A stretch of DNA of 64,000 nt from Christensenella sp. UBA2853 (GTDB taxonomy: Bacteria; Bacillota; Clostridia; Christensenellales; Aristaeellaceae): positions 4,430-68,429 of the forward strand of contig DEFL01000013.1 in assembly GCA_002350845.1 (NCBI GenBank), written 5' to 3'. The translations under genes and the position numbers were made by a program. Numbering within the stretch: position 1 is the first letter of the stretch; every line of letters begins with the position of its first letter. The notes beneath the pieces are model-generated. The model did not search any database and was not told the origin of the DNA. It saw only the letters and a program-made list of their open reading frames with translations. Shown piece after piece: positions 19,923 through 53,257 of the stretch.

Positions 19923-21347
19923 TTACCGCTTATCCTTGTCAATAAACTCCAGGGTAATGACTGTAAAAAGCGCATAGATGAGGGTGAAGAAGATGATGCT
20001 GAACCAGTAAGACAGAATATTGTCCTCCGTTCTTTCATACGCCTCAACACGGCTGACCGCAGCGGTCTGTGTCCGAACGAGATCCTTGATTTTTTCTTCT
20101 CCCACCAGTTCCATCAGACGGCCCACAGTGGTCCGAACGGTGACGTTCTCCCCTCTGCGGCTCTGCGCGTCCGGACTGACAGCGATGATGTCGATCAGTT
20201 CACCCACTGTCGTCTGTCTGCCAATGACCACATCTTTCACATCTTCAATCATGGATTCCAGTTCAAACCGGTCGATCAGTTCACCTGCTTTGACCGGTCC
20301 ACCGTCTGCACCGCGAAGAAGCTGGGAATTTTCAAGGAATGTCCTGACCAGAGCCGCCTCAGGGCTTGCTGAGGCTCCTTCTGCATTTCCGCCGATGAGT
20401 GCGTCCATCAGCGGGCCGACCTCTACGGGCTGTTCCCGGAACTGCTGATAGGCAGCGGAAGAACTGATCATACTCCATGCATTCCCAACAGTTGTGGTCG
20501 CATCCACTTCCCTGCTCCGAATCGCAGCAACCAGTTGATTGTCTCCATTGGAGAGATAATCCAGAATCTGGCCGACCGTTGCTGTGCCGCCGATTTCCTT
20601 GTCCTTCAACTTGACGAGTGTCGACCACGCTGTATCCATCGGTGCATTGTTATAGTCGGCCTGTGCAGCAATACATTTGAGTGCATAGTTCGAAATGGTA
20701 AACTGGGAAATGCTTTCAGACCATGCAGGAAGTGAGAAAATGCCGCCGGAAAAAACCAGCTGAAAAATCAGAACAAACGGCATGACGGTCATTGCTGTGG
20801 TCGTCGTATGTGCAAGAGACGATATCCACAGTGACAGCATGTCCGAGGCATACGAGATCAGGAACAGGGTAAACGCAAGATCGACAATCAGCCATGGCGT
20901 GAATAATCCTTTTGCAGGGAACTGCACTCCGACATACCTGAATACCACAACGGTCAGGATGGACTGTGCCAGGCAGAGCAGTGCCTGATAAATCATATGT
21001 GCACAGACATAAGAAGAGATATGCATGCCCGAACGGTGCTCACGTTTGATAATCGGCCGCTCGCGGCAGATCGCCTGAATGGAGTTGAAGCAGCCATTCC
21101 AGATCGCCACACACGTCAGGGCAAATGCGCCCATCAGATCGCCTTCCATGTTCAGGAAAAACTTTTTTCTGACGACCATGGCGACAAGGGCCGCAATCAG
21201 TGCAGCCATGGGCAGCACTTTCCAGTCATTTTCATAGACGAACATGCGCAGCATCTTTCCCAGATAAATGCGGACCTGTGCAAGGCGCCCGCGATGCCGC
21301 ATCCTATAACTATGTCTCCGCCTTCCTTCGGCGTTTACTTCAGCCAT
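19923..21347 (-). CDS. ABC-2/ABCG-like exporter permease with a 215-aa repeat-containing loop between TM5 and TM6, 474 aa
   Basis: Six TM helices; start set at MAEVNA (GGAGGTG RBS), overlapping the ATPase stop by 8 nt; loop holds four T(T/A)TVG repeats. Confidence 0.75.
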   Translation of the reverse strand: MAEVNAEGRRRHSYRMRHRGRLAQVRIYLGKMLRMFVYENDWKVLPMAALIAALVAMVVRKKFFLNMEGDLMGAFALTCVAIWNGCFNSIQAICRERPIIKREHRSGMHISSYVCAHMIYQALLCLAQSILTVVVFRYVGVQFPAKGLFTPWLIVDLAFTLFLISYASDMLSLWISSLAHTTTTAMTVMPFVLIFQLVFSGGIFSLPAWSESISQFTISNYALKCIAAQADYNNAPMDTAWSTLVKLKDKEIGGTATVGQILDYLSNGDNQLVAAIRSREVDATTTVGNAWSMISSSAAYQQFREQPVEVGPLMDALIGGNAEGASASPEAALVRTFLENSQLLRGADGGPVKAGELIDRFELESMIEDVKDVVIGRQTTVGELIDIIAVSPDAQSRRGENVTVRTTVGRLMELVGEEKIKDLVRTQTAAVSRVEAYERTEDNILSYWFSIIFFTLIYALFTVITLEFIDKDKR

Positions 21348-22671
21348 TCTGCACCTCCGCATATCTTTCAATGAATTCGTCTGCCCTGCCTTCGCCGCCT
21401 TCTTCTTTGCGGTTAATGGCCATGACAACTTCCTCCATCTTTTCTTTTCCGAAAAATGCACGGGCTTCTTCAATCGGTCCAAAGAAGGCAAGCCTGCCTG
21501 TCCTGTTCTTGTCCTTGGCCAGAACAATGACATCATCAAAGAGATCAATCACACGGTCCGGCGTATGCGTAATCACGATCACAATCTTGCCCTGATTGGC
21601 AATCGCGCGAAGCTGCTCCATCAGCTCTCTGGCCATGACGCCGTCCAGGCCGGAATCCGGTTCATCCAGAATAAACAGAGAAGGATTGGAAATGAATTCC
21701 ATCGCGATGGAGGCCCGTTTTTTCTGCCCTCCGGAAAGCTTCTCCACGAGGTTATTCTTCACCGGTTCCAGACCGAAGATCTTCATGACTTCTTCCACTC
21801 TTGCCCTGCGCTGAGCGCGTGAAACCCCCAGCGGCACCCGCAGAAGGGACGCATCCATGAGTGTGTGGTATACAGTATCTTTTCCGCGCATCAGTTCCTG
21901 CTGTGGAACAAAACCGACTTCATACTGCATCTTCTTGTATTCGCTGTATATGTTTCCACCGTTCAGTGTGACCTTGGCTTTGGCCTTTTCATAACCGTTG
22001 ACAGCATTAAGGAATGTTGTCTTTCCTGCGCCGGAACCTCCCAGAAGCAGCACCATATGCCCGGGTTTGATATACATATGGATGTCATAAAGAAGATACT
22101 TTTTCTGAAAGAATTCGGTTGCAGTGCGTTCATCCAGGTTGACGGTCAGACCTTCCTTCATGCCCTCAATGTTATGACCCTGAATGGTTGCAAGTGAAGC
22201 CCTCTGGATTTCCTCCGCTTTCCATTCGGGCTGGAACTTTTTGGAAAGGCCCCAGATCGGCGCAACAAGAAAGTCTGCAAACAGCCACGGGATAATCCAC
22301 CATTTACTGACGCCATAGACTTCCGTCAAACCATTGTATACGCGGATTTCATAAATCAGACGAGTAAAGAGCAAAATCGTAAAAAACAGGCCGAAGATCA
22401 CACCGCCTGCATCGTTTTTTATGAATTCCAGCGCAATCGTGCATGCGGTCATCATGAAGGCCAGAACACTTGTCACACGGCCTTCCGGCTCCCGTCCTGC
22501 ACATCTGGCAAGCATGTACTCTCTCGCCCACGGGCAAAACGCCCACCAGCCTTTTACCCCTGACTTTTGGAAGAGAAACCAGAATCCCAGCCAGACTCCA
22601 ACGGACATGAGAATGTTTTCCACTTCATCCCCATTAAAAAAAATCAGTAAAAGCGCCTGTAAAACCGTCAT
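21340..22671 (-). CDS. ABC transporter ATP-binding protein with an N-terminal 4-TM membrane domain (about 150 aa), 443 aa
   Basis: Walker A GGSGAGKTT, signature LSGGQKKR, Walker B LFILDEPDSGLD; hydrophobic N-terminal extension. Confidence 0.85.
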   Translation of the reverse strand: MTVLQALLLIFFNGDEVENILMSVGVWLGFWFLFQKSGVKGWWAFCPWAREYMLARCAGREPEGRVTSVLAFMMTACTIALEFIKNDAGGVIFGLFFTILLFTRLIYEIRVYNGLTEVYGVSKWWIIPWLFADFLVAPIWGLSKKFQPEWKAEEIQRASLATIQGHNIEGMKEGLTVNLDERTATEFFQKKYLLYDIHMYIKPGHMVLLLGGSGAGKTTFLNAVNGYEKAKAKVTLNGGNIYSEYKKMQYEVGFVPQQELMRGKDTVYHTLMDASLLRVPLGVSRAQRRARVEEVMKIFGLEPVKNNLVEKLSGGQKKRASIAMEFISNPSLFILDEPDSGLDGVMARELMEQLRAIANQGKIVIVITHTPDRVIDLFDDVIVLAKDKNRTGRLAFFGPIEEARAFFGKEKMEEVVMAINRKEEGGEGRADEFIERYAEVQNG

Positions 22672-22696
22672 CTGTTTCGGTCACCCTTTTCCACTT

Positions 22697-23110
22697 TCAT
22701 GTCTTGATCCGCTTTTTTATGGTCAACACGTTCTGGTCATTGCACCGCTGATACTGAATTTCATCCATGGTTTTCTTCACCAGAAAGATTCCGAGACCGC
22801 CCACTGACCTGTTTTCAGCTGCCAGTGTGGTGTCAGGATCCGTTTTTTCAAGAGGATCGTACGGAATGCCATGATCCAAAAAGGTTATAGAAACCATGCC
22901 GCTCTGCTGATCATATGCAAACCGGACAGTGGCAAGTCCGACATTTGGCGCATATGCATAAAAGGCAATGTTGCTGAAAAGCTCATCGATCGCGATATCA
23001 ATCTGTGTCTGTGCTTTTAAAGGACAGTCGAGTCTTTCCAGCTCGGCATCAATGAACGCTGTGACTTCGGAAATGTTTTCCACCCTGGCATCCAGCGTCA
23101 GCTCTTTCAC
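22697..23110 (-). CDS. RsbW/SpoIIAB-type anti-sigma-like serine kinase (GHKL, HATPase_c_2-like), about 137 aa
   Basis: N-box-like AIDELFSNIAFYAY, DHGIPYDP, VGGLGIFLVKK; start set at the GTG at 23110 by alignment with the paralog MKELTL at 53257. Confidence 0.8.
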   Translation of the reverse strand: MKELTLDARVENISEVTAFIDAELERLDCPLKAQTQIDIAIDELFSNIAFYAYAPNVGLATVRFAYDQQSGMVSITFLDHGIPYDPLEKTDPDTTLAAENRSVGGLGIFLVKKTMDEIQYQRCNDQNVLTIKKRIKT

Positions 23111-23189
23111 CGTCCTCACCCCTTGCCTGTTTCATCTACTTGATGAGTGCATGCTTTCTATAGCAAACCGTTTCGCAGAATGAAGCGAA

Positions 23190-23792
23190 TCAAACCAGTT
23201 TCTTCAGGATGATCATCTCTGTCAATTCTCCCCGGATACTGACCTTAATCTCATCCGCCACATGAGTAACCACTGACTTTTCCAGTTCATCCCATATTCT
23301 GATTGCGTCTTCATCCTGCTGCCTGACGCGGCTGTTGATTTCATTCTGGTATTCTGTCATGCTCCAATCCCAGTCCAGCGTAGGCGTAGAGGACATCTCC
23401 TGCGGATTGGAAAGAAGAAGAGGTGAAGGTGCAACCGCGCCATCCTCTGCATTGCGCTCAAAGAAATCGCGAAGACGGCCCATCAGTCCTTTGGCCATTT
23501 CATTTTTCCCGCTGGAAGAAGCAGAAAGCAGCTGTCCGCGCTTTTCAGCGTTCAGTCTGGTCTCAACCTGCAGGTGCAGCTGATAGACATCATCGCGGTC
23601 CTCAATCCAGAACCTTCCGTCCGCCTTTCCGGTAATGGACCGCATCATGCCCATCATTTCTTCGGCCAGCAGGCGAAGCTGGAGTTCATTGCGTGATGAA
23701 AGCTTTTTGTAAGCAGCCACCTTGCCTGTCTGATTCAGGGCTGCTTCCATTTGATTCCCGTCATTGGAAACCAATATCACGTCGGTTTTCAT
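23190..23792 (-). CDS. Hypothetical protein, 200 aa, embedded between the STAS and kinase genes
   Basis: ATG 9 nt after the STAS stop, with GTGAGG RBS; no motif I recognise; the N-terminal half loosely resembles the helical N-terminus of GHKL anti-sigma kinases but lacks G-boxes. Confidence 0.6.
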   Translation of the reverse strand: MKTDVILVSNDGNQMEAALNQTGKVAAYKKLSSRNELQLRLLAEEMMGMMRSITGKADGRFWIEDRDDVYQLHLQVETRLNAEKRGQLLSASSSGKNEMAKGLMGRLRDFFERNAEDGAVAPSPLLLSNPQEMSSTPTLDWDWSMTEYQNEINSRVRQQDEDAIRIWDELEKSVVTHVADEIKVSIRGELTEMIILKKLV

Positions 23793-23801
23793 GCCTGCGC
23801 C

Positions 23802-24098
23802 TCACTCAATGGTCAGAATATCTGAAAAACCTGTCACTTCAAATACCTCTGCCACAATCTCATTGACATGCGTGACTTTCATGCCATCCTTTTTGCTCAT
23901 CACCTTATGGGCAGCCAGGAGAACACGAAGGCCGGCAGAAGAAATATAATCCAGCTTGCTGAAGTCAAAAACCAGACTGTCAGCACCATTCATGGACTGA
24001 TTCAGTTCCGCCTCCAGTTCAGGCGCAGTCATGGTGTCCAGTCTGCCTTCCACTGCAATTTCCAGGTTTCCGCCGTTTTGTTTTTTGATGATGTTCAT
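23802..24098 (-). CDS. STAS-domain anti-sigma-factor antagonist (SpoIIAA/RsbV-like), 98 aa
   Basis: DYISSAGLRVLL phosphorylatable-Ser motif; AGGAGGAAAAAA RBS. Confidence 0.9.
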   Translation of the reverse strand: MNIIKKQNGGNLEIAVEGRLDTMTAPELEAELNQSMNGADSLVFDFSKLDYISSAGLRVLLAAHKVMSKKDGMKVTHVNEIVAEVFEVTGFSDILTIE

Positions 24099-24273
24099 GG
24101 TGTTTTTTCCTCCTGTTTCTGTTCAATACTCTCATCATTTTCCTTTGCAGGAAATAAGGATTTCCGCGATGTCGTCATCGCGCATCAGCCATAGAATCCG
24201 TCTTCACCGCATACGGCGTCTATGCACGCATGCCGTGTACGGATCAAATAATCCAATGGTCTTGATTGCAATT

Positions 24274-24303
24274 ATTATACCAGACAAAGACTGCATGTGA
24301 CAA
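24274..24303 (-). promoter_or_regulatory. Sigma-A-like promoter of the STAS-X-kinase-ABC operon
   Basis: Minus strand: -35 TTGTCA (24303-24298), 18-nt spacer, extended -10 TGgTATAAT (24282-24274); implies a 5' UTR of about 165 nt. Confidence 0.5.
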
Positions 24304-24347
24304 TAAACACATAAGAAAAGCACAGACCTGCCATCGTGATATGTTGA

Positions 24348-26090
24348 TCAGTTGGCTCTCAGTTTCAGTGTCAGATTGTTCAGGTTCAGAGAATACGTGT
24401 AATTGGCTTCATCCGCAATCGCAAGCACCAGTCGGATGCCCAGCGCAACCTTTCCCTCATCGGGAATATAATGCACCGGATCAAAGGCACGGCAGTCATC
24501 TCTGAATCGCAGCACCCAGCGCTCACCCTTGCTGATGACGCGGACGGAAAGATGGTGTTTTTTCTTGTCCGCACTGAACCCGTGCTGGATAATATTCCCT
24601 GCCATCTCCTCAATGCACAGCGCAATATGATTGCTGACTTTTGCGCTCTGACCATGCTCAAGGCAAAACGCTTCCGCCTGCTTCACCACCCGCGCCACTT
24701 CCTCCATGGAGGCAATAGTGGCTTCCATCAGGCAGTCTCCCCTGACACCAAAATCACGGTCCAGCATCAGGCATGCATCCTCTTTCCACGGCATGGAACC
24801 GGTCTTCCATCGAATATAGACACAAATGGAAACCAGCGTCAGCAATTCACCCAGGCCAAAGTTCAGCCACACACCGTTTGCTCCCATGAATGCACTGCAA
24901 ACAAGGGCAGAAAGAATCGGAAACAGGGTGCCTTCTACCACTGAAATCAGTTCTGTCAGTCTGACCCGCTCGGTTCCCTGGTACATATTTTTGAATGCAT
25001 TGTTGAAGCAGCAGGGAATCAGGCCTATGGCAAACAGTCTTGCGCCAAGCACAGCCATTCTCTGTGTGTCTCCGGCATTGGGAATAAACAGGGATACAAA
25101 AGCCGGTGCAATCAGGAGCAGAATGCCGCCGACCGCCAGCCCAAGGATCACCCCATACCGGCACATCTGCCGGAACAGCTCCCGGAGGCTTGTGCGGTCT
25201 TCCTCGTTATAAAAGATACCTGATAAGGTCAGGGAAACCCCGCCGACACCGGTTGAAATGCAGTTGCTGGCATTACCTATCGTCATGATCACAGAGTAGG
25301 CAGCAATAGCCTGGCTCCCTCCGCGGAACGTGAGAATCTTATTGAGCACAAAGACCAGGATCACAGAGGTAATCATGCCGACACCGGCCGGTATTCCTCC
25401 CCGGAACAGCTCTGAGATTTTCTTCCCGCTGACAAGCTTCCAGGAAAAATGGAACACACATTTCTTGGAAAGGAAATAAAAGCCGGAAATCAGCATGGCC
25501 AGATAATAGCTCACGGAGGATGCCAACCCCATGCCAAACATGCCGCCATGGAAGACAAACACATTGAGGATGTCCAGAGCAACGTCTGCAACGGTCATGG
25601 TGAGCACCGCTGTGATCAGAATCCCGGTCTGCCCCGCCATCTGCAGGAACGGGACCAGCACCAGCGCGCCCATGGAAGCCGGTGCTCCAATGCTGAAACC
25701 ACGGAGATAATCCCTTGTCTTTTCAAAAAAGCCGCCTTCGCTTCCTGCCCCCATGAAGTTCGCCAGCGGTGAACTCAAAAGAAGGACGATCACCATAAAG
25801 GCCACCGAGACGCAACCGCCCACAGCCAGTGCAGAGGAATATCCGGCGTTGGTTTCTTCCTGGGATCCCCTGCCCAGGGACTTGCTGCAGGCCGCCTGGA
25901 TGCCGGAGGCCAGCAGACTGCCCAGTGCTCCGATCACCAACAGGACCGGATTGGACAGTCCATACGCCGCAATGGCTTCCTCGCCAAGGAAGCGTGAAAT
26001 CATCACACTGTCGATCATCAGACACAGAGACACCGTCAGTGCTGCAAAAATCTGTGCCGTGAGCATTTGACGTGTAAGTTTACGGATCAT
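24348..26090 (-). CDS. MATE family efflux transporter fused to a C-terminal RsbW-like GHKL domain, about 580 aa
   Basis: 12-TM MATE core, then about 140 aa with ALCIEEMAGNIIQHG, LRFRDDCRAFDP and GIRLVLAIADE; ATG at 26090 after AAAGGAG. Confidence 0.75.
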   Translation of the reverse strand: MIRKLTRQMLTAQIFAALTVSLCLMIDSVMISRFLGEEAIAAYGLSNPVLLVIGALGSLLASGIQAACSKSLGRGSQEETNAGYSSALAVGGCVSVAFMVIVLLLSSPLANFMGAGSEGGFFEKTRDYLRGFSIGAPASMGALVLVPFLQMAGQTGILITAVLTMTVADVALDILNVFVFHGGMFGMGLASSVSYYLAMLISGFYFLSKKCVFHFSWKLVSGKKISELFRGGIPAGVGMITSVILVFVLNKILTFRGGSQAIAAYSVIMTIGNASNCISTGVGGVSLTLSGIFYNEEDRTSLRELFRQMCRYGVILGLAVGGILLLIAPAFVSLFIPNAGDTQRMAVLGARLFAIGLIPCCFNNAFKNMYQGTERVRLTELISVVEGTLFPILSALVCSAFMGANGVWLNFGLGELLTLVSICVYIRWKTGSMPWKEDACLMLDRDFGVRGDCLMEATIASMEEVARVVKQAEAFCLEHGQSAKVSNHIALCIEEMAGNIIQHGFSADKKKHHLSVRVISKGERWVLRFRDDCRAFDPVHYIPDEGKVALGIRLVLAIADEANYTYSLNLNNLTLKLRAN

Positions 26091-26149
26091 TCCGTGCACT
26101 CCTTTTCTGTTTCAGGTTATGCGCCCGTGCCGCCACCATCTCTGATCAC

Positions 26150-26845
26150 TCAGGAACGTTTTCCCCCAATGGATGCGACGGGAAAAGAGAAATAGGTCTG
26201 CGGAAACGGCTCATTTTCCAGTGTAAAATGCCACCACTCCGAGCTCAGGGGACGGAACCCGTTCCGGATCATGCTTTCCCGCAGCAGCATACGGTTTGCA
26301 TACTGTGCTTCTGTAATCCCTGTGTAATCCGGGTGGCTCAGTTCGCCGAAAAAGTCAAACGGGCCGCCCATATCCGCCTCTTTCTGCAGCCTCATGTCAA
26401 ACAGCGTCAGATCGACCGTGCTCCCCCGGCTGTGACCCGAGTGCGCGGCAATATACCCCTGCGGTATGAGCACTTTCTTGTCCAGGGCAGGATAAAAATA
26501 CGCCTTCATGCGGATATCCTCTGTATCCTCTGCCCATCTCATAAAATGTGCCACTGCGCACTGCGGTCGGTAGGCGTCAAAGATTTTCAGGCGGAATCCC
26601 TTTTCCATCAGTTCATCGGCCGCCGCTTTCAGTGCATGCGCTGCCTCACGCGTCAGCAGCGCAATCGGTTCCTCATACCCATCAATCCGGTCACCAATAA
26701 AATTAAATGTAGAATAATAGCGGATTTCCAGAATGACATCCCTGACCACTTCACTGACAGCAACAAAGTCTGCCGCGTCATCAGAATAGATGATGCCTGA
26801 CTCTGCTTTCATCCAGTGATCGGTTTCTGTTTTCTGCGTCATCAT
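26150..26845 (-). CDS. D-alanyl-D-alanine dipeptidase, VanX/DdpX family (M15D), about 231 aa
   Basis: SGHSRGSTVDL zinc-site motif, EWWHF, FDAYRP; ATG at 26845 after GGGGGA. Confidence 0.75.
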   Translation of the reverse strand: MMTQKTETDHWMKAESGIIYSDDAADFVAVSEVVRDVILEIRYYSTFNFIGDRIDGYEEPIALLTREAAHALKAAADELMEKGFRLKIFDAYRPQCAVAHFMRWAEDTEDIRMKAYFYPALDKKVLIPQGYIAAHSGHSRGSTVDLTLFDMRLQKEADMGGPFDFFGELSHPDYTGITEAQYANRMLLRESMIRNGFRPLSSEWWHFTLENEPFPQTYFSFPVASIGGKRS

Positions 26846-27019
26846 ATGGTTTCCCCCTTGCATACAAACCGGGCATGCTGCCTGCTTCCGGTATCCGTGA
26901 ACGAAATGGATTGTATCATTTTTTTGCTTTCCCGTCTCTCCCTGATCTGCAGTTCATGAAAAGCATCTCCGTCATGAAGGTTACGCCGGATCTGCACGAG
27001 CACGGAAAAGCATTCCGTG

Positions 27020-27060
27020 AAAAAGATCCCGGCAGCTCATTGCTTCATGGCCGCCGGGAT
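27020..27060 (-). terminator. Intrinsic terminator ending the peptide-exporter operon
   Basis: Minus strand: CCCGGC-n21-GCCGGG followed by ATCTTTTT, 36 nt after the ABC stop. Confidence 0.7.
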
Positions 27061-27095
27061 ACCGCTTTGAATGATCTTTTTCTCTGGCTTTGATC

Positions 27096-29288
27096 TCATA
27101 CCGTCTCAGTATCCAGACGCTGCCGTGCAACCAGGTCCGCAAACATGCCTTTTTTGTCGATCAGTTCGTTATAGGTTCCTTCCTCCACAATCACACCTTT
27201 GTCCATCACCAGGATCCGGTCACAGTTGCGGATCGTGGACAGACGGTGCGCAATGACAATGCGCGTGCAGTGAAGCCCGTCGAGCGCATCGGAAACCTGC
27301 TTCTGCGTCTTGTTGTCCAATGCGCTGGTGGCCTCATCAAAGATGAGAATGCGCGGCTTTGGAGCAATTGCCCGTGCGATCATCAGACGCTGCTTCTGAC
27401 CCCCGGAAATGCCGCCCTGCCCCTCAGAGATGATCGTCTGCATCCCCATCGGCATCGCACGTATATCATCCGCAATGCCGGCTGTTTCTGCAGCTTCCCA
27501 TGCCTGATCGAGTGTCAGCTGCGGTGCGGACAGCGTAATATTGGAGAAAATGTCTCCCTGGAAAAGCTGGCCGTTCTGAATCACGACGCCGATCTGTCTG
27601 CGCAGCACTCTGGGGTCCAGGCTGGTCAGATCATGATGATCATAATACACTGCGCCGCTTTCCGGCCGCTCAAACCCAAGCAGAAGCCTGACCAGGGTGG
27701 ATTTTCCGCAGCCGGTGCGGCCCACAATGGCGACATACTCCCCTGCTTTGATTTTCAGGGAAAGGTCCCGCAGAATGTACGGCGTGTTCTGTTCATAGCG
27801 GAAGGACACGTGGCTCATCTCAATATTGCCCGAGACCTTCACAGACGCTTCCTTCTCTTCGGCAATCTCCGGCTCACTCTTCAGGATCGGCTCGGCCATC
27901 TCCAGGACCGGGCGGATGGAAGCGGCAGAAATGGCGATCCCGGCCAGTGCTGAGAAGGCGCCCATGACGCGTCCGTATGCCGCACTGAATGCATAGTACT
28001 GGCTGCCTTCAACACCGGTAGCCACGGCCAGATAATAGAGAATCACCGTGCCGATAAGGGAAATGGCCGTCTGCAACACTTTATTGACCTTCAGGAACAC
28101 AGGCGGATTGTATTCAAGACGTGCAGTCTTGGCATACAGCCGGCCCCAGCGCGCAAACACTCGCTTTTCAGAGCCGGATAATTTGATCTTCTGAATCCCG
28201 TTGAGTACGGCATAGCTCATGCCTGCCTCCTCAGCACTCAGCTGCATCTGCTTGCGCGAAATGCCGATCTGCACAAGAGAGGCCGTCACACTGAGTACAA
28301 CCGTTGCAAGAATGATGATCACAGAAGGCCATACCAGAGCCGGCGCAAAGGTGAAGATCTGTCCGATATAAAGCAGTGACATGAGACTGCTCAGACCAAT
28401 GGACAGGATATTGTTCAGCAGCATGCTGCACAGTGAACTCACAGAGCCTGCGCGTGAGGATAATTCGCCGGAGGAATACTTGCGGAAAAAGCTCACCGGC
28501 AGAGACAGGATCCGCATCATCACAGAGGCTTCCACCGCCTGGGAAGTTTTGGTGTTCAGTCTCTGCATCATCAGTTCACGCACAACGCTCAGCATCTGAG
28601 AGGCAAATGCGCTGGCCATGAGAAAGACAGCCACGCCGTTGAGTATGTTTGCTCGTTTCTGCTTGAGAATGGTGCCTGTAATCAATTGATACACCTGCGG
28701 CTCAATCATCCCAACCAGAGTGACGGCCAGCGTTGCCAGCACAATCAGCAGAAGGTCTCCTTTGGAGATGCTGTTCTTCATGTAAATCAGCAGGTCCGGA
28801 ATGCCAAGTTTCTTCATCGGCAGCGGCTGATAAAAGCACAGCGCATCTCTGGCAAACCTGGAGGCATTTTTGCGTGTGACCCGGGTCATTTTTCCGGTTT
28901 CAGGGTCTTTGAATTCATAGCCCATGATCATGCCGGGGAGAAGCGCAACCGTTGCCCCGGTATCCTTCATGTAACCCAGCATCGGTCCAAAGGCGTCATT
29001 CTGCCAGCCTTCTTCCAGAAGGACATCGCGCATCATCAGGCCTGCAGGGCGGAGAGCATATTCAAGCTGTTCGTTCACATCGGTAATCGACTCAGGTATC
29101 TCAACCGGCTTGCGATGGTAATATTTCAGAATATCATCCATGGCTTCCTTTGCGATCAGCCTTTTGTCTTCCGCACGTTCGGAATCCCATTTATCCATGA
29201 CAACACTGGCCATGCGAAAAAAGGAATCTTCCAGTACTTCCTGGTCACTCTGCTGACGCATCCGGATCTGTTCGCCAAACCATCCCAT
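27096..29288 (-). CDS. ABC exporter (TMD-NBD) with a non-catalytic N-terminal domain; second ABC of an NHLM-type bacteriocin/peptide export system, 730 aa
   Basis: N-terminal 150 aa lack the catalytic Cys; 6-TM exporter core; GRTGCGKST, ISGGQKQR, LIFDEATSALD. Confidence 0.8.
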   Translation of the reverse strand: MGWFGEQIRMRQQSDQEVLEDSFFRMASVVMDKWDSERAEDKRLIAKEAMDDILKYYHRKPVEIPESITDVNEQLEYALRPAGLMMRDVLLEEGWQNDAFGPMLGYMKDTGATVALLPGMIMGYEFKDPETGKMTRVTRKNASRFARDALCFYQPLPMKKLGIPDLLIYMKNSISKGDLLLIVLATLAVTLVGMIEPQVYQLITGTILKQKRANILNGVAVFLMASAFASQMLSVVRELMMQRLNTKTSQAVEASVMMRILSLPVSFFRKYSSGELSSRAGSVSSLCSMLLNNILSIGLSSLMSLLYIGQIFTFAPALVWPSVIIILATVVLSVTASLVQIGISRKQMQLSAEEAGMSYAVLNGIQKIKLSGSEKRVFARWGRLYAKTARLEYNPPVFLKVNKVLQTAISLIGTVILYYLAVATGVEGSQYYAFSAAYGRVMGAFSALAGIAISAASIRPVLEMAEPILKSEPEIAEEKEASVKVSGNIEMSHVSFRYEQNTPYILRDLSLKIKAGEYVAIVGRTGCGKSTLVRLLLGFERPESGAVYYDHHDLTSLDPRVLRRQIGVVIQNGQLFQGDIFSNITLSAPQLTLDQAWEAAETAGIADDIRAMPMGMQTIISEGQGGISGGQKQRLMIARAIAPKPRILIFDEATSALDNKTQKQVSDALDGLHCTRIVIAHRLSTIRNCDRILVMDKGVIVEEGTYNELIDKKGMFADLVARQRLDTETV

Positions 29289-29303
29289 ATTCTCTCCACC
29301 TCC

Positions 29304-31493
29304 TTACTCGCTTGTTACCAGTTCGGCATAAGCGCCGCCTTTGGCATACAGTTCCTCGTGCGTTCCGCGCTCCACGATTTTTCCTTTTTCCAGCACAATG
29401 ATTTCATCGCAGTCACGGATCGTGGACAGGCGGTGCGCAATGACAATACAGGAAATGCCTCTCATCTTCACCGCTTTGACCAGTTCATATTCTGTTTTCG
29501 CATCCAATGCGCTGGTCGCCTCATCCAGAATAATAACCGACGGGTCCTGGGCCAGAACGCGGGCAATTTCCAGTCTCTGTCTCTGACCACCCGACAGGTC
29601 TCTTCCGTTCTCGATCAATTTGTTCTGGTAACCATTGGGACGCTGCAGAATATCATCATGGATCTGTGCATCCCTTGCCGCCAGGATGACTTCAAAATCC
29701 TCGATTGATTTATCCCACATCCGTATATTGTTGGCGATGGTATCCTCAAACAGAACAATGTCCTGGTCCACCATGGCCACAGAGCCTGTAAACACGCTCC
29801 GCGGGATATCCTTGATCGGTCGTCCGTCAAACAGGATTTCTCCGTCCCAGGGCTGATACAATCCGGTAATGAGCTTGCTGACCGTGGATTTTCCGCTGCC
29901 GCTCCCTCCAACAATGGCAATCCGGCTGCCGGGCTTCATGTGCATGGAGAAGTCTTCGATGGTGGGATTTCCCAGAGGCGAGTAACCGAAGGTGAGATTG
30001 CGAACCTCCACTTCCCCCTTCAGTTTTGCATAATCCTCATTCTTCTTTTCTCTGCTTTCCTGAAGCATGGGATCATCCGGATATTCCATCACGTCCTCTA
30101 CGCGTTCCATCTCCGTGCGCATTTCCTGGATCGTCTGTCCCGCACTGACCAGGGTCATGGCCGGGTCCATGAAAGAGGTAAGCAGTCCCTGGAACGTTGT
30201 GATCATGCCCAGAGTAAAGTTTCCGTTCATGGCCAGGCGCACGCCAAGGAACAGAACGGCATAGTTGCACAGTGTATTGATCAGTGTGGGAATCATTCCA
30301 TACCGGGCATTGAGCGTGTCAAAGCGGACCTGCTGAGTATTGACAGAAGCCTGATAGCCCGACCACTTGCGGAAGAAACCGGCTTCCGCGCCAGAAGCCT
30401 TGATGGTTTCCGCCATGCTGATGCCTGCCATGGTGGCCGATGCCAGTTTGCCCGAATCCCGCATCTGAACGCGCGTGAGATTCACCCGCTTTTCAGACAT
30501 GTACCGCGCCACAATCAGGTTCAGGACCAGTGAGAATAATCCCAGCAGTGTCATGAGCGGGCTGTATCGCAGCATGATCACCAGATAAAAAACCATCATC
30601 ATGGTGTTCAGGGCCAGCGGTGCCACAGTGCCGACGAGTGTCCCGGCAATCGAAGCGTTTGTTCCCTGGCGCTGAAGAATATCTCCGGTCAGGCGCTGAG
30701 AGAAAAACTCAACGGGCAGTTTCAGGATTTTCCACATAAAGGACGCATTGCCTTCGATCGCCATTTTTCCGTCGATTTTGAGCGTATAAATCGTCCTCGC
30801 CCATTCCACAATGATCTGGAAAATGCACAGGAGCGCCATCACCAGGATGAAAGGATGCAGCCATTCCGGCGCACGTCCTGACAGCAGCCTGTCAAAAAAG
30901 ATTCGGGACATGACGGGGTTGATGACACCAAACAGGTAGGTGATCACAGACATCAGAGTGACAAACGCGACGGCCGGCCCCGCCCCTCTCAGACGTTTTT
31001 TGGCAAATTCAAGCGTGCTCTTCCGTTTTCCTGACGGCACAAACGACGGCCCCGGCGCAAACGTCAGGACAAGGCCGGTAAACGATTCATCAAACTCCTC
31101 CATGGATACCTGAACAATCCCTCTGGCCGGGTCATTGATCACGGCTTTTCCCTTTTTAAATCCATCGAGGACCACAAAGTGATTGAAATTCCAGTGAATA
31201 ATACAGGGATAGGTGGCCTGGGTTTTGATCCCGTCCAGTTCCATTTTGTATCCATGGACTTCCAGCCCGTAGTTTTGGCCTGCAAGATAGACGTTTTTCA
31301 TGTTTGAACCGTCTCTGGAAACACCGCAGTCCAGCCGGACCTGTTCGAGCGGGACCCATTTCTGGTAATAGGCGAGAATCATGCACAGACACGCCGCCCC
31401 GCATTCAAGCGCTTCCATCTGCATGATCATCGGAACTTTGGCGACACTGTCTTTGACAGGCTGATGCCTGCTTTTACTCAGCTTCTCTTTCAT
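29304..31493 (-). CDS. C39 peptidase-domain ABC exporter (double-glycine leader cleaving), about 729 aa
   Basis: QMEALECGAACLCMILAYY (catalytic Cys), HFVVLDG (His), INDPARG (Asp); GGSGSGKST, LSGGQRQR, IILDEATSALD; ATG at 31493 after GAGGAGG. Confidence 0.9.
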   Translation of the reverse strand: MKEKLSKSRHQPVKDSVAKVPMIMQMEALECGAACLCMILAYYQKWVPLEQVRLDCGVSRDGSNMKNVYLAGQNYGLEVHGYKMELDGIKTQATYPCIIHWNFNHFVVLDGFKKGKAVINDPARGIVQVSMEEFDESFTGLVLTFAPGPSFVPSGKRKSTLEFAKKRLRGAGPAVAFVTLMSVITYLFGVINPVMSRIFFDRLLSGRAPEWLHPFILVMALLCIFQIIVEWARTIYTLKIDGKMAIEGNASFMWKILKLPVEFFSQRLTGDILQRQGTNASIAGTLVGTVAPLALNTMMMVFYLVIMLRYSPLMTLLGLFSLVLNLIVARYMSEKRVNLTRVQMRDSGKLASATMAGISMAETIKASGAEAGFFRKWSGYQASVNTQQVRFDTLNARYGMIPTLINTLCNYAVLFLGVRLAMNGNFTLGMITTFQGLLTSFMDPAMTLVSAGQTIQEMRTEMERVEDVMEYPDDPMLQESREKKNEDYAKLKGEVEVRNLTFGYSPLGNPTIEDFSMHMKPGSRIAIVGGSGSGKSTVSKLITGLYQPWDGEILFDGRPIKDIPRSVFTGSVAMVDQDIVLFEDTIANNIRMWDKSIEDFEVILAARDAQIHDDILQRPNGYQNKLIENGRDLSGGQRQRLEIARVLAQDPSVIILDEATSALDAKTEYELVKAVKMRGISCIVIAHRLSTIRDCDEIIVLEKGKIVERGTHEELYAKGGAYAELVTSE

Positions 31494-31713
31494 CGGACAG
31501 CCTCCTCGTAAGATCAGGTCTGCGGATTCTTTCCATGGCCGTTTCCATCCGGATGCATGGCCATTTCCCGAAAGCATCCCGCAGAAAAGGATATGCAGGT
31601 TTCTCTACTCCTGTCATTCAGGAAGAGAGGTGCAGGGACCACACGTGCATCAGCCGCGCAGATGGCTGGTGTACACGCCGGTTCCTCACACGGTTCACCT
31701 GCATTTCCTATCG

Positions 31714-46291: not shown

Positions 46292-46745
46292 GAGTCATCC
46301 CCTGCCTTCCTTATGCTGTGAAACCTCTGATTTCCTGACTTTGTGGTGCCTGAGGCATCTCCACTGCGCATTCCCGCAGATTGCTTTTCTCACTGAAGAA
46401 CCTTTTCAATTCGATTCATTGTAAGAAAAAAGGCATGCGAAAACAAGAGACACAAATCACCGTTTTCGTCCTGCCCTGAACAATCGCCCGATGAGCCGTA
46501 TCCCGCACGCTCTTTACCAGGCATTTCTCTGTGTGTGCCTTGCAATCAAAGGGCACATGGCTATATAATACTTTAGAACAGATATTTGTGCATCTTTTTT
46601 TGCGTTATTGGCATATCATCTGTCCGATATGCAGCATTCTGCAACTGCAGCCAGTGCTCCGGATGTCTGGACAATACAGATCGATGCTTTTCTGTGCGTG
46701 ATGCGTTTCCCGGGGAATTGATCAAAGAGAAAGTGAGGCCATGTG

Positions 46746-48449
46746 ATGCGTAAGCGATCCATTCGTAAGAAATCGGTACGAACCATCGTATTCAGCTGTT
46801 TTGCCCTTGGCCTTACTACGCTGCTGATTGGACTGGTCATTTATACGACATCCCTGGTACAGCAGTATGTGCGGCACGCGTTTGGTATCGCAAGTCATGC
46901 CGCCATGAATGCAACCTATGCGTCGATGAATGCACATCACGGTGTGGACTCTGCCCCGATCTCACACCAGGTCATGACCATCTACAGAGGACTCTCACCC
47001 CAGGACCGGGCGAAGATGGGCACGGTCGAGTATCGCCGACTTTTTTCTTCCATCGATACAATTCCCAAAAGCGGAAGTTCATGGGACAGGCTGACACACA
47101 TGCTCAACACGTTTGTGATTGAAGTCGATGATGTCTATATCGCCATGTATGATGAAGCCACTTCCGCTCTGGTCTATATCGCCGATGCATCGGCTGACAG
47201 CCGCATGTACCCCGGCGACTGGGAGGCTGTCAGCCAGAATGAAGTGCAGAAATTCCTGAACTGGAAAGGTCCGGAAATGCTGTACGATATCGACAGGACG
47301 GAAAAATACGGCTGGCTTTGCACCGCGGGCTATCCGCTCCGGGACGGAAACGGCAAAGTCTTCGCTTTTCTGATGGTCGATGTCTCCGTCGACAACATCA
47401 TCGGCGATATGCTCGATTTCTCCCTGAAGGTGACCATCGGCATCCTCCTGCTGACCTTCATCATTGCCTGGCTGGGCAGCCGGCGCATCAAGAAAGGCAT
47501 TGCGGATCCGATTGATGCCATTGCCAATGCCGCCATGGATTACGTTCAGGGCAGGAATGAAGGAACGGACAGACATTATTTCAGCGAGCTGAATCTGAAA
47601 ACCAATAATGAACTTGAGGACCTCAGCCATGTCATGGCTGATATGGAGATCAGCCTCGCCAGTCATGAGGAGCACATCCGCACCATTACGGCAGAAAAGG
47701 AAAGAATCAATACGGAACTGAGCATGGCGCAGAGAATCCAGGCCGCCATGATGCCGCATGTCTTCCCGCCTTTTCCCGACCGAAAGGAATTCGATCTTTA
47801 CGCACTCATGCATCCGGCCAGGGAGGTCGGCGGTGACTTTTACGATTTCTTCCTGATTGACCAGGATCATCTGGCGCTGGTTATCGCGGATGTGAGCGGT
47901 AAAGGCATCCCCGCTGCACTCTTTATGATGATTTCCAAAATCATCCTGCAGAGCTGCGCCATGCTGGGAAAAAGCGCCGGTGAGATCCTCACCAAAACCA
48001 ACGATGCCCTGTGTTCAAACAATCAGGTGCAGATGTTTGTGACCGTTTGGCTGGGCATTCTGGAAATCTCCACCGGAAAAATGACCTGCGCAAACGCCGG
48101 TCACGAATATCCTGCTCTGTATTCCGCAACTCAGGGTAACTTCACACTCTTCAAAGACAAACACGGCCTGGTGATTGGCGGTCTTCCGGATATTCATTAT
48201 CGTGAGTATGAGATTCAGCTGAAGAAGAACGATGTGCTGTTTGTTTATACAGACGGTGTCCCTGAGGCAACAAACGAAGAGCTGAACATGTTCGGTACCG
48301 ACCGAATGCTCGAAGTGCTCAATGCCTCTTCCCAGCAGTCCACAACAGAAATCCTTGAATCCGTTGATCGGTCGGTCAAGCAGTTTGTCGGTCCCGCTGA
48401 ACAGTTCGATGATCTGACCATGCTATGCCTTCGATACAACGGTATATAA
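46746..48449 (+). CDS. Membrane sensor PP2C phosphatase (extracytoplasmic domain, HAMP, SpoIIE/PP2C), about 567 aa
   Basis: Two TM helices flanking a 190-aa sensor domain; HAMP-like linker; AREVGGDFYDF, IADVSGKGIPAALFMM, DGVPEA and FDDLT motifs. Confidence 0.85.
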   Translation: MRKRSIRKKSVRTIVFSCFALGLTTLLIGLVIYTTSLVQQYVRHAFGIASHAAMNATYASMNAHHGVDSAPISHQVMTIYRGLSPQDRAKMGTVEYRRLFSSIDTIPKSGSSWDRLTHMLNTFVIEVDDVYIAMYDEATSALVYIADASADSRMYPGDWEAVSQNEVQKFLNWKGPEMLYDIDRTEKYGWLCTAGYPLRDGNGKVFAFLMVDVSVDNIIGDMLDFSLKVTIGILLLTFIIAWLGSRRIKKGIADPIDAIANAAMDYVQGRNEGTDRHYFSELNLKTNNELEDLSHVMADMEISLASHEEHIRTITAEKERINTELSMAQRIQAAMMPHVFPPFPDRKEFDLYALMHPAREVGGDFYDFFLIDQDHLALVIADVSGKGIPAALFMMISKIILQSCAMLGKSAGEILTKTNDALCSNNQVQMFVTVWLGILEISTGKMTCANAGHEYPALYSATQGNFTLFKDKHGLVIGGLPDIHYREYEIQLKKNDVLFVYTDGVPEATNEELNMFGTDRMLEVLNASSQQSTTEILESVDRSVKQFVGPAEQFDDLTMLCLRYNGI

Positions 48450-51517: not shown

Positions 51518-52378
51518 CTATTTTCTCGCAGGTCTGGGAAATCGGTTCATCTGTTCATCTGTCAGTCCGAGAATGCCTCCCAACTGGCGGATGGCAATCC
51601 TGTCATCCTGCAGGAACATTTCCTGGCTGGGCACTATATCATAGCAGAAATTTCCGATCATGTCTGCACTGTATCCATATTTTTCCCGGTACTGTTCAGC
51701 CAGTGCATTGTACAGCACCTGTGCCCATTTCTGATGATAGGAGGAAGTCACCAGGGTCATGGACGCAATGCCCTTCTCCCGGAGAATGGCCAGTGTGTTC
51801 ACAGCGTTTTCCACTGTGGTTTTGGCTCTTTCATCGATCAGAATTCTGTCCTCGGGAATGCCGCACGGACCTGAGAGGTAGGCTTTCATCAGCCCCGCCT
51901 CCGTATGCCTGTCGGGATTGTTCTTCCCGGTAGCACCGCCTGAACAGACCAGAATGGAGTCCGGAAAGGCTGCGGCAGCGCATGCGGCCGCTTCACATCT
52001 TCCCTTCAGTTCGTCGGTCATTTCCCCGTTTTCCAGCTCATATCCCAGCACAATAAACGCATGTGCCCGGGAAACAGGGATCTGGTCAGGGTCATCCCTG
52101 CCATAAAGAAGCAGCTGATAATCAGGATTGAGGTAAACACTTTTCCAGTGCTCGGCAATTGCATAGGCCATGTCTTCCCCGATTGCCTGGACATCAGCAT
52201 CAATGCGCGCAGCGTCTTTCCCTTCTTCATACGCTTCGAGCATATCCAGCAGAAGCGTGCCATAGTTGATCTGTTGCGCTGCCCATGCACACAAGGGCGT
52301 AATACACAAAAGCAGTATACATACAGTCCAAAAAGCACAGAATCGCTTCATTGCTGTCTGCTTTCTCCCGCTGTCCAT
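51518..52378 (-). CDS. Secreted/anchored DUF218 (YdcF/ElyC) family protein, about 286 aa
   Basis: CSGGATGKNNPDRHTEAGLMKAYL...ERAKTTVENA and SSYHQKW motifs; signal peptide MKRFCAFWTVCILLLCITPLCAWA; the start is uncertain (52351, 52378 or 52384). Confidence 0.7.
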   Translation of the reverse strand: MDSGRKQTAMKRFCAFWTVCILLLCITPLCAWAAQQINYGTLLLDMLEAYEEGKDAARIDADVQAIGEDMAYAIAEHWKSVYLNPDYQLLLYGRDDPDQIPVSRAHAFIVLGYELENGEMTDELKGRCEAAACAAAAFPDSILVCSGGATGKNNPDRHTEAGLMKAYLSGPCGIPEDRILIDERAKTTVENAVNTLAILREKGIASMTLVTSSYHQKWAQVLYNALAEQYREKYGYSADMIGNFCYDIVPSQEMFLQDDRIAIRQLGGILGLTDEQMNRFPRPARK

Positions 52379-52504
52379 CCTCATATCCCCCTTCGTACAC
52401 ACATTGTCCTCCCCATGCTTTGCATTCAAGGCAGCAAAACACAGGGAGGACAAAGCAGCTATAGTTTCATGGTATTTCGTCCTGAGACCTTTTCTCTCAG
52501 CACA

Positions 52505-52810
52505 TCATTCAATCGTCAGAATATCGGCAAAACCGGTGACTTCAAAGACTTCCTGCACCACTTCATTGACATGCAGCACTTTCATGCCGCCTTTTTTCAC
52601 CATGTTCTTGTGGGCCGCAAGAAGCACACGCAGGCCGGCAGAGGAGATATATTCAAGATTGCTGAAATCCAGGGTCAGGCTTTCTGCGCCGCCGAGGGAT
52701 TTGCTGAGTTCTGTTTCCAGTTCGGGCGCGGTCATCGTATCCAGACGTCCTTCGAGTGCAATGGTCATATTTCCGCCGTTCAGAGTCTTGGTCATTTTCA
52801 TAGTGGTCAA
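52505..52810 (-). CDS. STAS-domain anti-sigma-factor antagonist, 101 aa (paralog of 23802-24098)
   Basis: EYISSAGLRVLL motif; about 78% identical to the other STAS protein over 91 residues (hand count). Confidence 0.9.
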   Translation of the reverse strand: MTTMKMTKTLNGGNMTIALEGRLDTMTAPELETELSKSLGGAESLTLDFSNLEYISSAGLRVLLAAHKNMVKKGGMKVLHVNEVVQEVFEVTGFADILTIE

Positions 52811-52849
52811 CTCTCCTTTTTTTCTTTCGCGTCTATTCTTTCACTGGTT

Positions 52850-53257
52850 TCAGATCTTTTTGCGGATGGTCAGTATGTTTTTCCCGTTTTCATAGCGGTA
52901 TTCCATCTGATCCATGGTCTTTCGAACAAGAAAGATACCCAGTCCTCCGACTTCCCGCTCATGACTTGGTGCGGTCACGTCCGGGTCCTGCCGTGATAAC
53001 GGATTGAATGGAACCCCGCTGTCGATAAAGGTGACCGATGCCATCCGGGTGGATTCATCAAACTCAAAGCGCACGGTCGCTTCACCGACATCAGGCGCAT
53101 ATGCATAGCGTGAGATATTGCAGAACATTTCATCAATGGCAACATCCATCTGCATCTGCGGCTTCATCGGACAGTCCAGAGCCTCCAGCTGTTCATCAAT
53201 GAACGCTGTGACTCTGGGGATGTTTTCAATCTGCGCCTGCAGTGTCAATTCCTTCAA
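52850..53257 (-). CDS. RsbW/SpoIIAB-type GHKL serine kinase, 135 aa (paralog of 22697-23110)
   Basis: AIDEMFCNISRYAY, DSGVPFNP, VGGLGIFLVRK; TTG start overlapping the PP2C stop (TTGA). Confidence 0.85.
   Translation of the reverse strand: MKELTLQAQIENIPRVTAFIDEQLEALDCPMKPQMQMDVAIDEMFCNISRYAYAPDVGEATVRFEFDESTRMASVTFIDSGVPFNPLSRQDPDVTAPSHEREVGGLGIFLVRKTMDQMEYRYENGKNILTIRKKI

Follow-up and report, generated by a model that had tools for sequence, protein, structure and literature searches.

A MATE transporter family fused to an RsbW/SpoIIAB-class domain, and its linkage to a STAS-containing gene pair in rumen and gut Clostridia

The stretch of DNA considered here (hereafter the window) comprises 64,000 nucleotides of contig DEFL01000013.1 (positions 4,430 to 68,429) from assembly GCA_002350845.1, Christensenella sp. 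UBA2853, and all coordinates below are positions within it. On its minus strand lies a gene from an uncultured rumen Clostridia bacterium whose product joins a MATE transporter core to a C-terminal GHKL domain (HATPase_c_2) of the class that includes RsbW and SpoIIAB. Both domains belong to well-known families; what sets this case apart is their fusion, the non-canonical Asp-Asp-Cys (DDC) form of its G1 motif, and a dedicated cassette of two genes that encode a STAS protein and a putative pseudokinase, unk200. The fusion gene, its parts, and the genes that follow it are listed below, with residues of the GHKL domain equated to those of SpoIIAB.

24348..26090, minus strand: gene for the MATE-HATPase_c_2 fusion protein (580 aa if translation starts at the ATG at 26090), stop codon at 24348-24350

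24810..26090, minus strand: DinF-subfamily MATE membrane core, ~12 transmembrane (TM) helices, residues ~4-430 (TIGR00797; phmmer alignment to 4lz6/5c6o)

24726..24809, minus strand: conserved juxtamembrane linker, WKTGSMPWKEDACLMLDRDFGV..., with the family consensus PW..GA.LLL..DFGV

24351..24725, minus strand: RsbW/SpoIIAB-class GHKL (HATPase_c_2) domain, residues 459-583 (Pfam, hhalign, AlphaFold2 (AF2) model, Foldseek)

24576..24629, minus strand: N-box helix of that domain, HIALCIEEMAGNIIQHGF; Glu498 = SpoIIAB Glu46, Asn502 = Asn50, His506 = His54

24477..24512, minus strand: G1-equivalent, LRFRDDCRAFDP; Asp534 = SpoIIAB Asp81 (adenine contact), with Cys536 replacing Gly83

24429..24446, minus strand: reduced G2 box, ALGIRL; Gly554 = SpoIIAB Gly109, with Ala552 replacing Gly107

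23802..24098, minus strand: STAS protein, single-domain anti-sigma-antagonist type, 98 aa, with YISSAGL (TIGR00377, 68 bits; PF01740, 52 bits)

23190..23792, minus strand: unk200, a 200-aa protein with a predicted degenerate RsbW/SpoIIAB-like fold

22697..23119, minus strand: canonical stand-alone RsbW-like HATPase_c_2 protein, 140 aa, with the motifs DELFSN, DHGIPYDP and GGLG

The reading frame passes from the MATE core into the RsbW-like domain without interruption, as the initial annotation had described. The mechanical open reading frame (ORF) spans 24348..26099 on the minus strand (583 aa from a GTG at 26099) and contains no internal stop, and the three motifs that had first drawn attention to it, ALCIEEMAGNIIQHG, the G1-equivalent LRFRDDCRAFDP and GIRLVLAIADE...LTLKL, are all present. 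A minor correction applies to the start codon, which is probably the ATG at 26090, since an AAGGAG sits 9 nt 5′ of this codon and a database protein identical to the fusion (P0001, 100%) is 580 aa in length.

Whether such a gene is real, or whether an assembly error or frameshift has run two separate genes, one for MATE and one for RsbW, into one, was a concern from the outset, and the artefact is refuted by two lines of evidence. The region 23700-26200 is covered by contigs of four independent runs, from four bovine gut/rumen metagenome studies, with 0 substitutions and 0 indels, and hundreds of near-full-length homologues share the same layout and the conserved linker. One of the four runs is labelled metatranscriptomic. 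Its contig spans ~22033-25829, from inside an ABC ATPase gene through the stand-alone RsbW, unk200 and STAS genes and into the fusion gene. Transcription of this region in the rumen is compatible with that contig, although DNA carry-over is possible and the contigs leave transcript ends undefined.

The fusion is widespread. The 120 best database homologues are ~580-620 aa in length, save one of 542 aa, and all of them match at least 96% of the query. A scan of one genome per species returned at least 213 stretches encoding a relative of the fusion. For locus comparisons, 80 of these 213 stretches were kept with flanks of up to 6 kb per side, shorter where the contig ended; where 81 loci are given below, the window has been added to these 80. 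All 80 derive from metagenome-assembled genomes (MAGs) of rumen or gut Clostridia, labelled Christensenellales, Oscillospiraceae, Lachnospiraceae or “Clostridiales”. With the C-terminal domain alone as the query, an exhaustive HMMER search gave 1487 clusters (50% identity) at E<=1e-3, of which 614 reach E<=1e-10, and among the best 150 domain matches, all 57 of the full-length ones are ~580-610 aa proteins with a MATE core, the shorter ones being mostly fragments. The same architecture was thus found in other genomes, where the initial annotation had proposed to look for it: in at least 213 species-level genomes and >600 clusters at 50% identity. Since the independent contigs are identical, and near-full-length homologues and hundreds of clusters share the layout, the MATE-HATPase_c_2 fusion is an established gene family.

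The family has attracted few names. NCBI calls the fusion protein “ATP-binding protein”, and the precomputed Pfam labels name both domains. Cluster names are almost absent from the distant members, one fragment being an “anti-sigma regulatory factor (Ser/Thr protein kinase)”, and among the distant-member clusters looked up, no cultured organism was found. Within the window, other ORFs of ~584 aa were examined as possible paralogues of the fusion and proved to be unrelated.

In six database proteins, a DDC-type domain stands behind an N-terminus other than MATE, including Zn-ribbon plus TM helices, Wzy_C, Glyphos_transf, CPSase and PurF-like sequences (P0123, P0153, P0158, P0263, P0241 and P0210). 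A helix resembling MATE TM12, together with the linker, still precedes the domain in at least three of them (P0153, P0158 and P0210). Most of these architectures were dismissed, as the retained helix and linker suggest chimeric assemblies or gene calls. P0123 has TM segments of its own besides a Zn-ribbon and might be a genuine alternative anchor.

The initial annotation's complete 12-TM MATE core is borne out by both domain and structure-based comparisons. Two stretches of the fusion protein match PF01554 (MatE) at 84.2 bits, against a cutoff of 24.9, and TIGR00797 (matE) covers model positions 3-396 of 396 at 146.5 bits, just under its cutoff of 147.4; the NCBIfam scan found no family specific for the fusion protein. 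In a phmmer alignment, residues 5-427 of the query are collinear end to end with residues 13-434 (of 446) in the chain of the solved DinF-BH structure 4lz6, a match of ~420 residues with an E-value of 2e-14. The hydropathy profile fits 12 TM helices, with TM8 falling under the crude threshold used. In TM1, Asp30 (LMIDSVM, within 26001-26030) is at least 90% conserved in the fusion family, and its counterpart in DinF-BH is the Asp of NVVDTIF, likewise in TM1, which is the protonation-site Asp40. Transporters of the DinF/PfMATE type use this acidic residue for cation coupling. Because the DinF-BH alignment is full-length and the TM1 Asp is retained, the core looks like a functional, cation-coupled transporter, not a decayed anchor.

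The ~420-residue core alignment and the TM1 Asp are also the main points of likeness between the fusion protein and DinF-BH (PDB 4LZ6/5C6O; also PfMATE, 3VVN). The difference lies at the C-terminus: solved or characterised MATE transporters end shortly past TM12, whereas the fusion protein adds a 150-residue domain of a signalling type. Taken together, the full-length alignment of the core, the topology known for solved MATE structures with 12 TM helices, and the crude hydropathy profile point to a cytoplasmic location for this domain. The linker that joins it to TM12 is modelled with lower confidence (pLDDT 63-81), and its P, W, L, L, F and G are each at least 90% conserved in the family.

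The RsbW/SpoIIAB-like GHKL identity first assigned to the C-terminus holds for both profile and fold. HATPase_c_2 (PF13581) matches residues 463-578 above its cutoff of 27.4 bits, with a score of 37.2 bits when the whole protein is scanned and of 41.4 bits for the last 147 aa alone, and hhalign aligns the domain with the stand-alone RsbW family over 120 columns (probability 90.8%, E 1.2e-6). A sequence-only search against PDB sequences gave just insignificant matches to histidine kinases (E 0.6), hence a fold search was needed. Modelled with AF2, these 147 residues (pLDDT 87, pTM 0.81) have their best PDB fold matches in RsbW of B. subtilis (6m37), UsfX of M. tuberculosis (8ih8) and SpoIIAB (1til/1l0o/1th8), with E-values of 7e-8 to 5e-7 and TM-scores of 0.72-0.83 on the target. 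The top 17 Foldseek matches are all RsbW, UsfX or SpoIIAB, and the catalytic domains of histidine kinases rank below them.

Site residues were mapped onto SpoIIAB of G. stearothermophilus, with a constant register offset of 16 residues, and their conservation was counted in 57 divergent full-length members of the fusion family that are 35-55% identical. In the N-box, Glu498 corresponds to the catalytic (general) base Glu46, Asn502 to the Mg2+ ligand Asn50, and His506 to the conserved N-box His54. The Glu-Glu pair is retained in 56-57/57 members (Glu498 in 57/57) and the Asn in 54/57. At G1, the Asp is present in 56/57 and is followed by Cys at the position of the first Gly in 55/57, with Gly in 1/57, so that this family-wide Cys (RDDC) breaks the Asp-x-Gly pattern. 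At G2, the second Gly (Gly554) occurs in 57/57, and the first position is Ala, Asn or His, or Gly in 9/57. The ATP lid is ~8 residues shorter than that of SpoIIAB.

The initial annotation had regarded G1 as degenerate by the yardstick of DxGxG. The loss of the first Gly stands, as it is a Cys here, but the yardstick does not, since stand-alone RsbW proteins of this family themselves have DxGxxFD, not DxGxG. The stand-alone RsbW proteins of this window read D-H-G-I-P-Y-D-P, and G1 of B. subtilis RsbW is D-E-G-D-S-F-D. It follows that Gly to Cys is the sole departure of the fused domain at G1.

The fused domain might be a catalytically dead appendage for structure or dimerisation, that is, a ligand-free pseudokinase that oligomerises or anchors the transporter, and the Gly to Cys change, reduced G2 box and short lid are what such a role would predict. 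This is nonetheless unlikely, given that the Glu, Asn and Asp are near-invariant down to 35% identity and that the adjacent putative pseudokinase has lost its Asn, a combination that favours a functional pocket. Retention of these three residues at 35-55% identity, alongside loss of the Asn from neighbouring unk200, argues that the nucleotide pocket of the fused domain is selected and in use. For this reason, the earlier suggestion that the domain binds a partner without phosphorylating it is not established: the three residues are kept in 54-57/57 members, and the nucleotide site looks selected. Kinase activity may be retained, as the Glu, Asn and Asp are near-invariant, or may be lost, as G1 has a Cys, G2 is reduced and the lid is short.

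Three cysteines of the cytoplasmic domain, Cys479, Cys495 and Cys536 (~24492-24665), are invariant among close homologues of the fusion. In the divergent members, Cys479 is found in 51/57, Cys536 in 55/57 and Cys495 in 28/57. A redox role for these residues, or a metal or disulfide site formed by them, is conceivable.

Among known proteins, RsbW, SpoIIAB and UsfX are the closest to the fused domain, with which they share a fold, a size of ~125-140 aa, and the adjacency of a gene of the STAS antagonist type. The N-box of SpoIIAB, SEAVTNAIIHGY, is close to the EE...N...HGF of the fused domain, and the DxGxxFD/DxGxxYD of stand-alone RsbW resembles its D..FDP motif. In contrast to these soluble proteins, the fused domain is tethered to a 12-TM transporter, its G1 Cys is near-invariant, a G2 Gly is lost, its lid is ~8 residues shorter, and the loci scanned have no nearby gene with a sigma-factor domain. 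UsfX, which we take to be a non-kinase member that is regulated otherwise, gives non-catalytic behaviour of such a domain a precedent.

What most consistently accompanies the fusion gene is the STAS-unk200 pair. After ORF clustering, its commonest neighbours are unk200 (16/81 loci) and STAS (14/81), with every other cluster in <=8 loci. There are 16 matches to unk200 in 15/80 related loci, every one of them <=1 kb from the fusion gene, and across 723 kb of flanks there were zero at a distance of 1-6 kb. Several gene orders occur. In four loci (L014, L026, L031 and L040), the order is STAS-unk200-fusion, and unk200 is separated from the fusion gene by 12-25 nt, a spacing that makes this order operonic. 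The window and six related loci (L002, L006, L019, L022, L033 and L036) have the order fusion-STAS-unk200, the STAS start lying 50-270 nt from the fusion stop. Fusion gene and pair are divergently oriented in L029 and L051, and a different type of STAS gene lies 36 nt upstream of the fusion gene in L048. In roughly half of the linked loci, a stand-alone RsbW is missing from the vicinity, which leaves the fused domain as the sole kinase-like partner there. In a reverse look-up from homologues of unk200, the fusion gene flanks the pair on 2/3 long contigs, one of which is without a stand-alone RsbW nearby.

These counts establish the link, which is in part operonic and is not universal in cis. 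The STAS association noted in the window thus extends beyond it, the pair adjoining the fusion in 15/80 related loci upstream, downstream or divergently. A STAS gene is indeed linked, as the initial annotation had it, but the conserved partner is the STAS-pseudokinase pair and not STAS alone.

The second member of the pair has no match in Pfam, NCBIfam or PDB sequences, and unk200 homologues form ~1900 clusters at 90% identity. Its AF2 model is of moderate confidence (pLDDT 69), with a confident core, beta-alpha-alpha-beta-beta ... alpha-beta-beta, and a low-confidence insert of ~55 residues (82-138) at the place of the ATP lid. The best fold matches in Foldseek are to SpoIIAB, UsfX, RsbW and, weakly, SiaB (E from 3.6e-3, probability ~1.0, TM-scores 0.59-0.66 on the target). 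With hhalign, unk200 gives weak, collinear, local matches to the fused domain (probability 16%) and to the stand-alone RsbW (<1%), and the Asn of its N-box is lost (EEMMGM). On the strength of the model and its fold matches, unk200 is provisionally regarded as a degenerate RsbW-like pseudokinase that would partner with the STAS protein. A STAS gene is located directly 5′ of unk200 in all but four of 80 metagenomic loci with >=400 bp of upstream sequence, and unk200 appears to be an undescribed family of STAS-coupled pseudokinases. Two STAS-unk200 cassettes lie close together in L104 (5691-6585 and 11108-11973) and L130 (4396-6907), where the second unk200 copy is ~35% identical, indicating paralogous expansion of the cassette.

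The fact that most loci lack a nearby STAS gene would also suit a GHKL domain that has no STAS partner and acts as a self-contained module, e.g., one that senses ATP/ADP or, by way of the conserved Cys, redox state, gating or stabilising the MATE core, with adjacency reflecting co-regulation only. Conservation of the Glu/Asn/Asp site residues, Cys536, and the linker to TM12 would be expected in that case as well. Set against it are the best fold matches, which belong specifically to the STAS-binding RsbW/UsfX/SpoIIAB subclass, and the identity of the sole recurrent neighbour, the STAS-unk200 cassette, which always abuts the fusion gene and does so in several arrangements. A partnerless module is accordingly rather unlikely.

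Because RsbW, SpoIIAB and UsfX, its best structural matches, are anti-sigma factors, the domain might alternatively sequester an alternative sigma factor at the membrane, to be released by the STAS protein, with the MATE core as the sensor. However, no sigma-factor domain was found in Pfam scans of the window operon and of a second partner-switching module described below, or in the precomputed Pfam labels of the related loci examined, where no sigma-like gene recurs as a neighbour either. Partner switches with non-sigma outputs are, moreover, documented (PMC8256260; bioRxiv 10.64898/2026.04.08.717354). A membrane anti-sigma factor is for these reasons improbable, slightly more so than a dead appendage.

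Further genes and sites of the window that bear on a partner-switching function are as follows.

24274..24303, minus strand: sigma-70-like promoter match (TTGTCA, 18 nt, TG-n-TATAAT), ~45 nt past the fusion stop and before the STAS operon

24099-24273, minus strand: leader of ~175 nt, from the promoter-like site to the STAS start

21340-22671, minus strand: ABC ATPase of 443 aa, extended at its N-terminus by a hydrophobic stretch; with the permease, the last part of the STAS operon

19923-21548, minus strand: ABC-2 permease, start uncertain, with a long C-terminal region of repeated “TTVG...” segments

52505-55446, minus strand: second, classical-looking partner-switch operon (dCache-HAMP-SpoIIE sensor phosphatase, RsbW and STAS, then DUF218)

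53254-55446, minus strand: dCache-HAMP-SpoIIE sensor phosphatase of that operon

52850-53257, minus strand: second RsbW, 59% identical to the RsbW of the first module

52505-52810, minus strand: second STAS

51518-52453, minus strand: DUF218 protein, after the second STAS

46743-48449, plus strand: membrane-anchored SpoIIE/PP2C phosphatase, 568 aa

Domain scans confirmed both stand-alone RsbW-like genes (22697-23119 and 52850-53257) and both STAS genes (23802-24098 and 52505-52810) named in the initial annotation, and the promoter-like site that it placed ~45 nt after the fusion stop is present as a near-consensus match at 24303-24274 on the minus strand. This site is a consensus match only, and the regional scan gave 4 sites where 3.2 were expected. 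An Rfam scan of 22-27 kb, including the STAS leader, found no known riboswitch and just sub-threshold C/D snoRNA noise.

The ABC ATPase and permease ORFs overlap by ~200 nt, so the listed TTG start of the permease is probably too far upstream. Genes for an ABC ATPase and ABC-2 permease recur with the module in L022, L044, L076, L079 and L087-L090. Directly upstream of the fusion gene, in the region 26150-31577 (minus strand), is a gene for a VanX-like D-Ala-D-Ala dipeptidase (Peptidase_M15), which is also found near the fusion in 6 related loci. Two ABC exporters lie past the dipeptidase, in the same region and on the same strand, and one of them carries a C39 bacteriocin-processing peptidase domain.

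Near the fusion gene, the partner-switching set thus comprises the STAS gene with two to three RsbW-like proteins adjacent, and the SpoIIE-type phosphatases are 22-30 kb away. No recurrent phosphatase gene adjoins the fusion gene in the 81 loci. The phosphatase at 46743-48449 is a candidate to act on either STAS protein.

Architecture, fold, conservation of site residues, and gene linkage are shown by these analyses. The interpretation of these observations that we find somewhat more probable than its alternatives taken together is that the fused domain serves as a membrane-anchored partner-switch component on a DinF-type MATE transporter, acts with the STAS-unk200 cassette, and couples the state of the transporter to that of the STAS module. 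The fused domain would bind the STAS protein of the cassette. It would probably still bind ATP and Mg, and may phosphorylate a serine of the STAS protein. How the MATE core is configured or transports would be coupled to whether the STAS module is phosphorylated or bound, in either direction, from transport to signal or from signal to transport, and the SpoIIE-type PP2C phosphatases elsewhere in the window (46743-48449 and 53254-55446) are candidates for resetting the switch.

Several observations weigh against this partner-switch interpretation. The first Gly of G1 is a Cys, the first Gly of G2 is lost, and the lid is short, and hence ATP binding or catalysis by the fused domain may be impaired. 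A conserved counterpart of SpoIIAB Arg20, a residue that we take to contact SpoIIAA, was not found in the family and SpoIIAB alignments. With respect to gene linkage, the fusion gene is present at just 3/14 STAS-unk200 metagenome loci with >=2.4 kb on both sides, and ~80% of related loci have no STAS or unk200 gene in the <=6 kb per side. Coupling is thus not obligatorily in cis.

Both directions of coupling have precedents. Flux sensing by BceAB-BceS is reportedly an example of transport to signal. For signal to transport, examples are the regulation of MlaF by MlaB (PMC7367683) and the STAS domain of SLC26 transporters (PMC8256260).

A more specific version of the partner-switch interpretation is put forward tentatively, and with considerably more doubt. 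Here the MATE protein would be a “transceptor”, in which substrate occupancy, flux or proton-motive state is passed through the linker to the DDC-type, possibly Cys/redox-tuned kinase domain. The latter would phosphorylate or sequester the dedicated STAS protein and so toggle unk200 toward a sigma-independent output, e.g., control of the co-encoded ABC exporter. As output partners, both unk200 and the ABC transporter are candidates.

Known systems approach this arrangement from several sides. Vibrio SypE/SypA and Pseudomonas SiaABCD are partner switches that act on targets other than sigma factors. Other modules in which a STAS protein works with an RsbW-like kinase and a PP2C phosphatase to control non-sigma targets have likewise been described, e.g., HenR/All4160 of Anabaena (bioRxiv 10.64898/2026.04.08.717354; PMC10120452; PMC8256260). 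None of HenR/All4160, SypE/SypA and SiaABCD has a kinase-like domain on a transporter, and none has a conserved STAS-pseudokinase cassette.

A transporter physically coupled to one half of a STAS/GHKL pair is seen in SLC26/SulP-STAS proteins and in MlaB-MlaFE, where the STAS domain has a controlling or stabilising effect on the transporter (PMC8256260, PMC7367683). In contrast to these systems, the transporter of the fusion belongs to the MOP/MATE superfamily and bears the kinase-like (RsbW) half, with STAS as the soluble half. This is the inverse of the SLC26-STAS arrangement that the initial annotation had recognised, the transporter carrying the RsbW-type half and the STAS gene being separate. 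No paper on a MATE-RsbW fusion emerged from literature searches, including full text, that combined MATE with HATPase_c_2 or RsbW or were directed at pseudokinase partner switches. The initial annotation's remark that no characterised example was known agrees with these searches, in which no paper describing or testing such a fusion came to light.

Partner-switching modules built from STAS, RsbW and PP2C proteins are a major currency of bacterial signalling, and the signal input is known for few of these systems. An RsbW-bearing transporter would provide a direct physical route between membrane transport, be it drug or metabolite efflux or the proton gradient, and the switch. In addition, the family-wide replacement of the G1 Gly by Cys, with the Glu, Asn and Asp kept, amounts to a natural experiment on how much change the GHKL pocket tolerates. 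The fusion family is abundant in rumen and gut Clostridia, with hundreds of sequence clusters, and is uncharacterised, as its STAS-pseudokinase cassette is undescribed. If true, the transceptor reading would define a new class of transporter-embedded partner switch that is common in rumen Clostridia.

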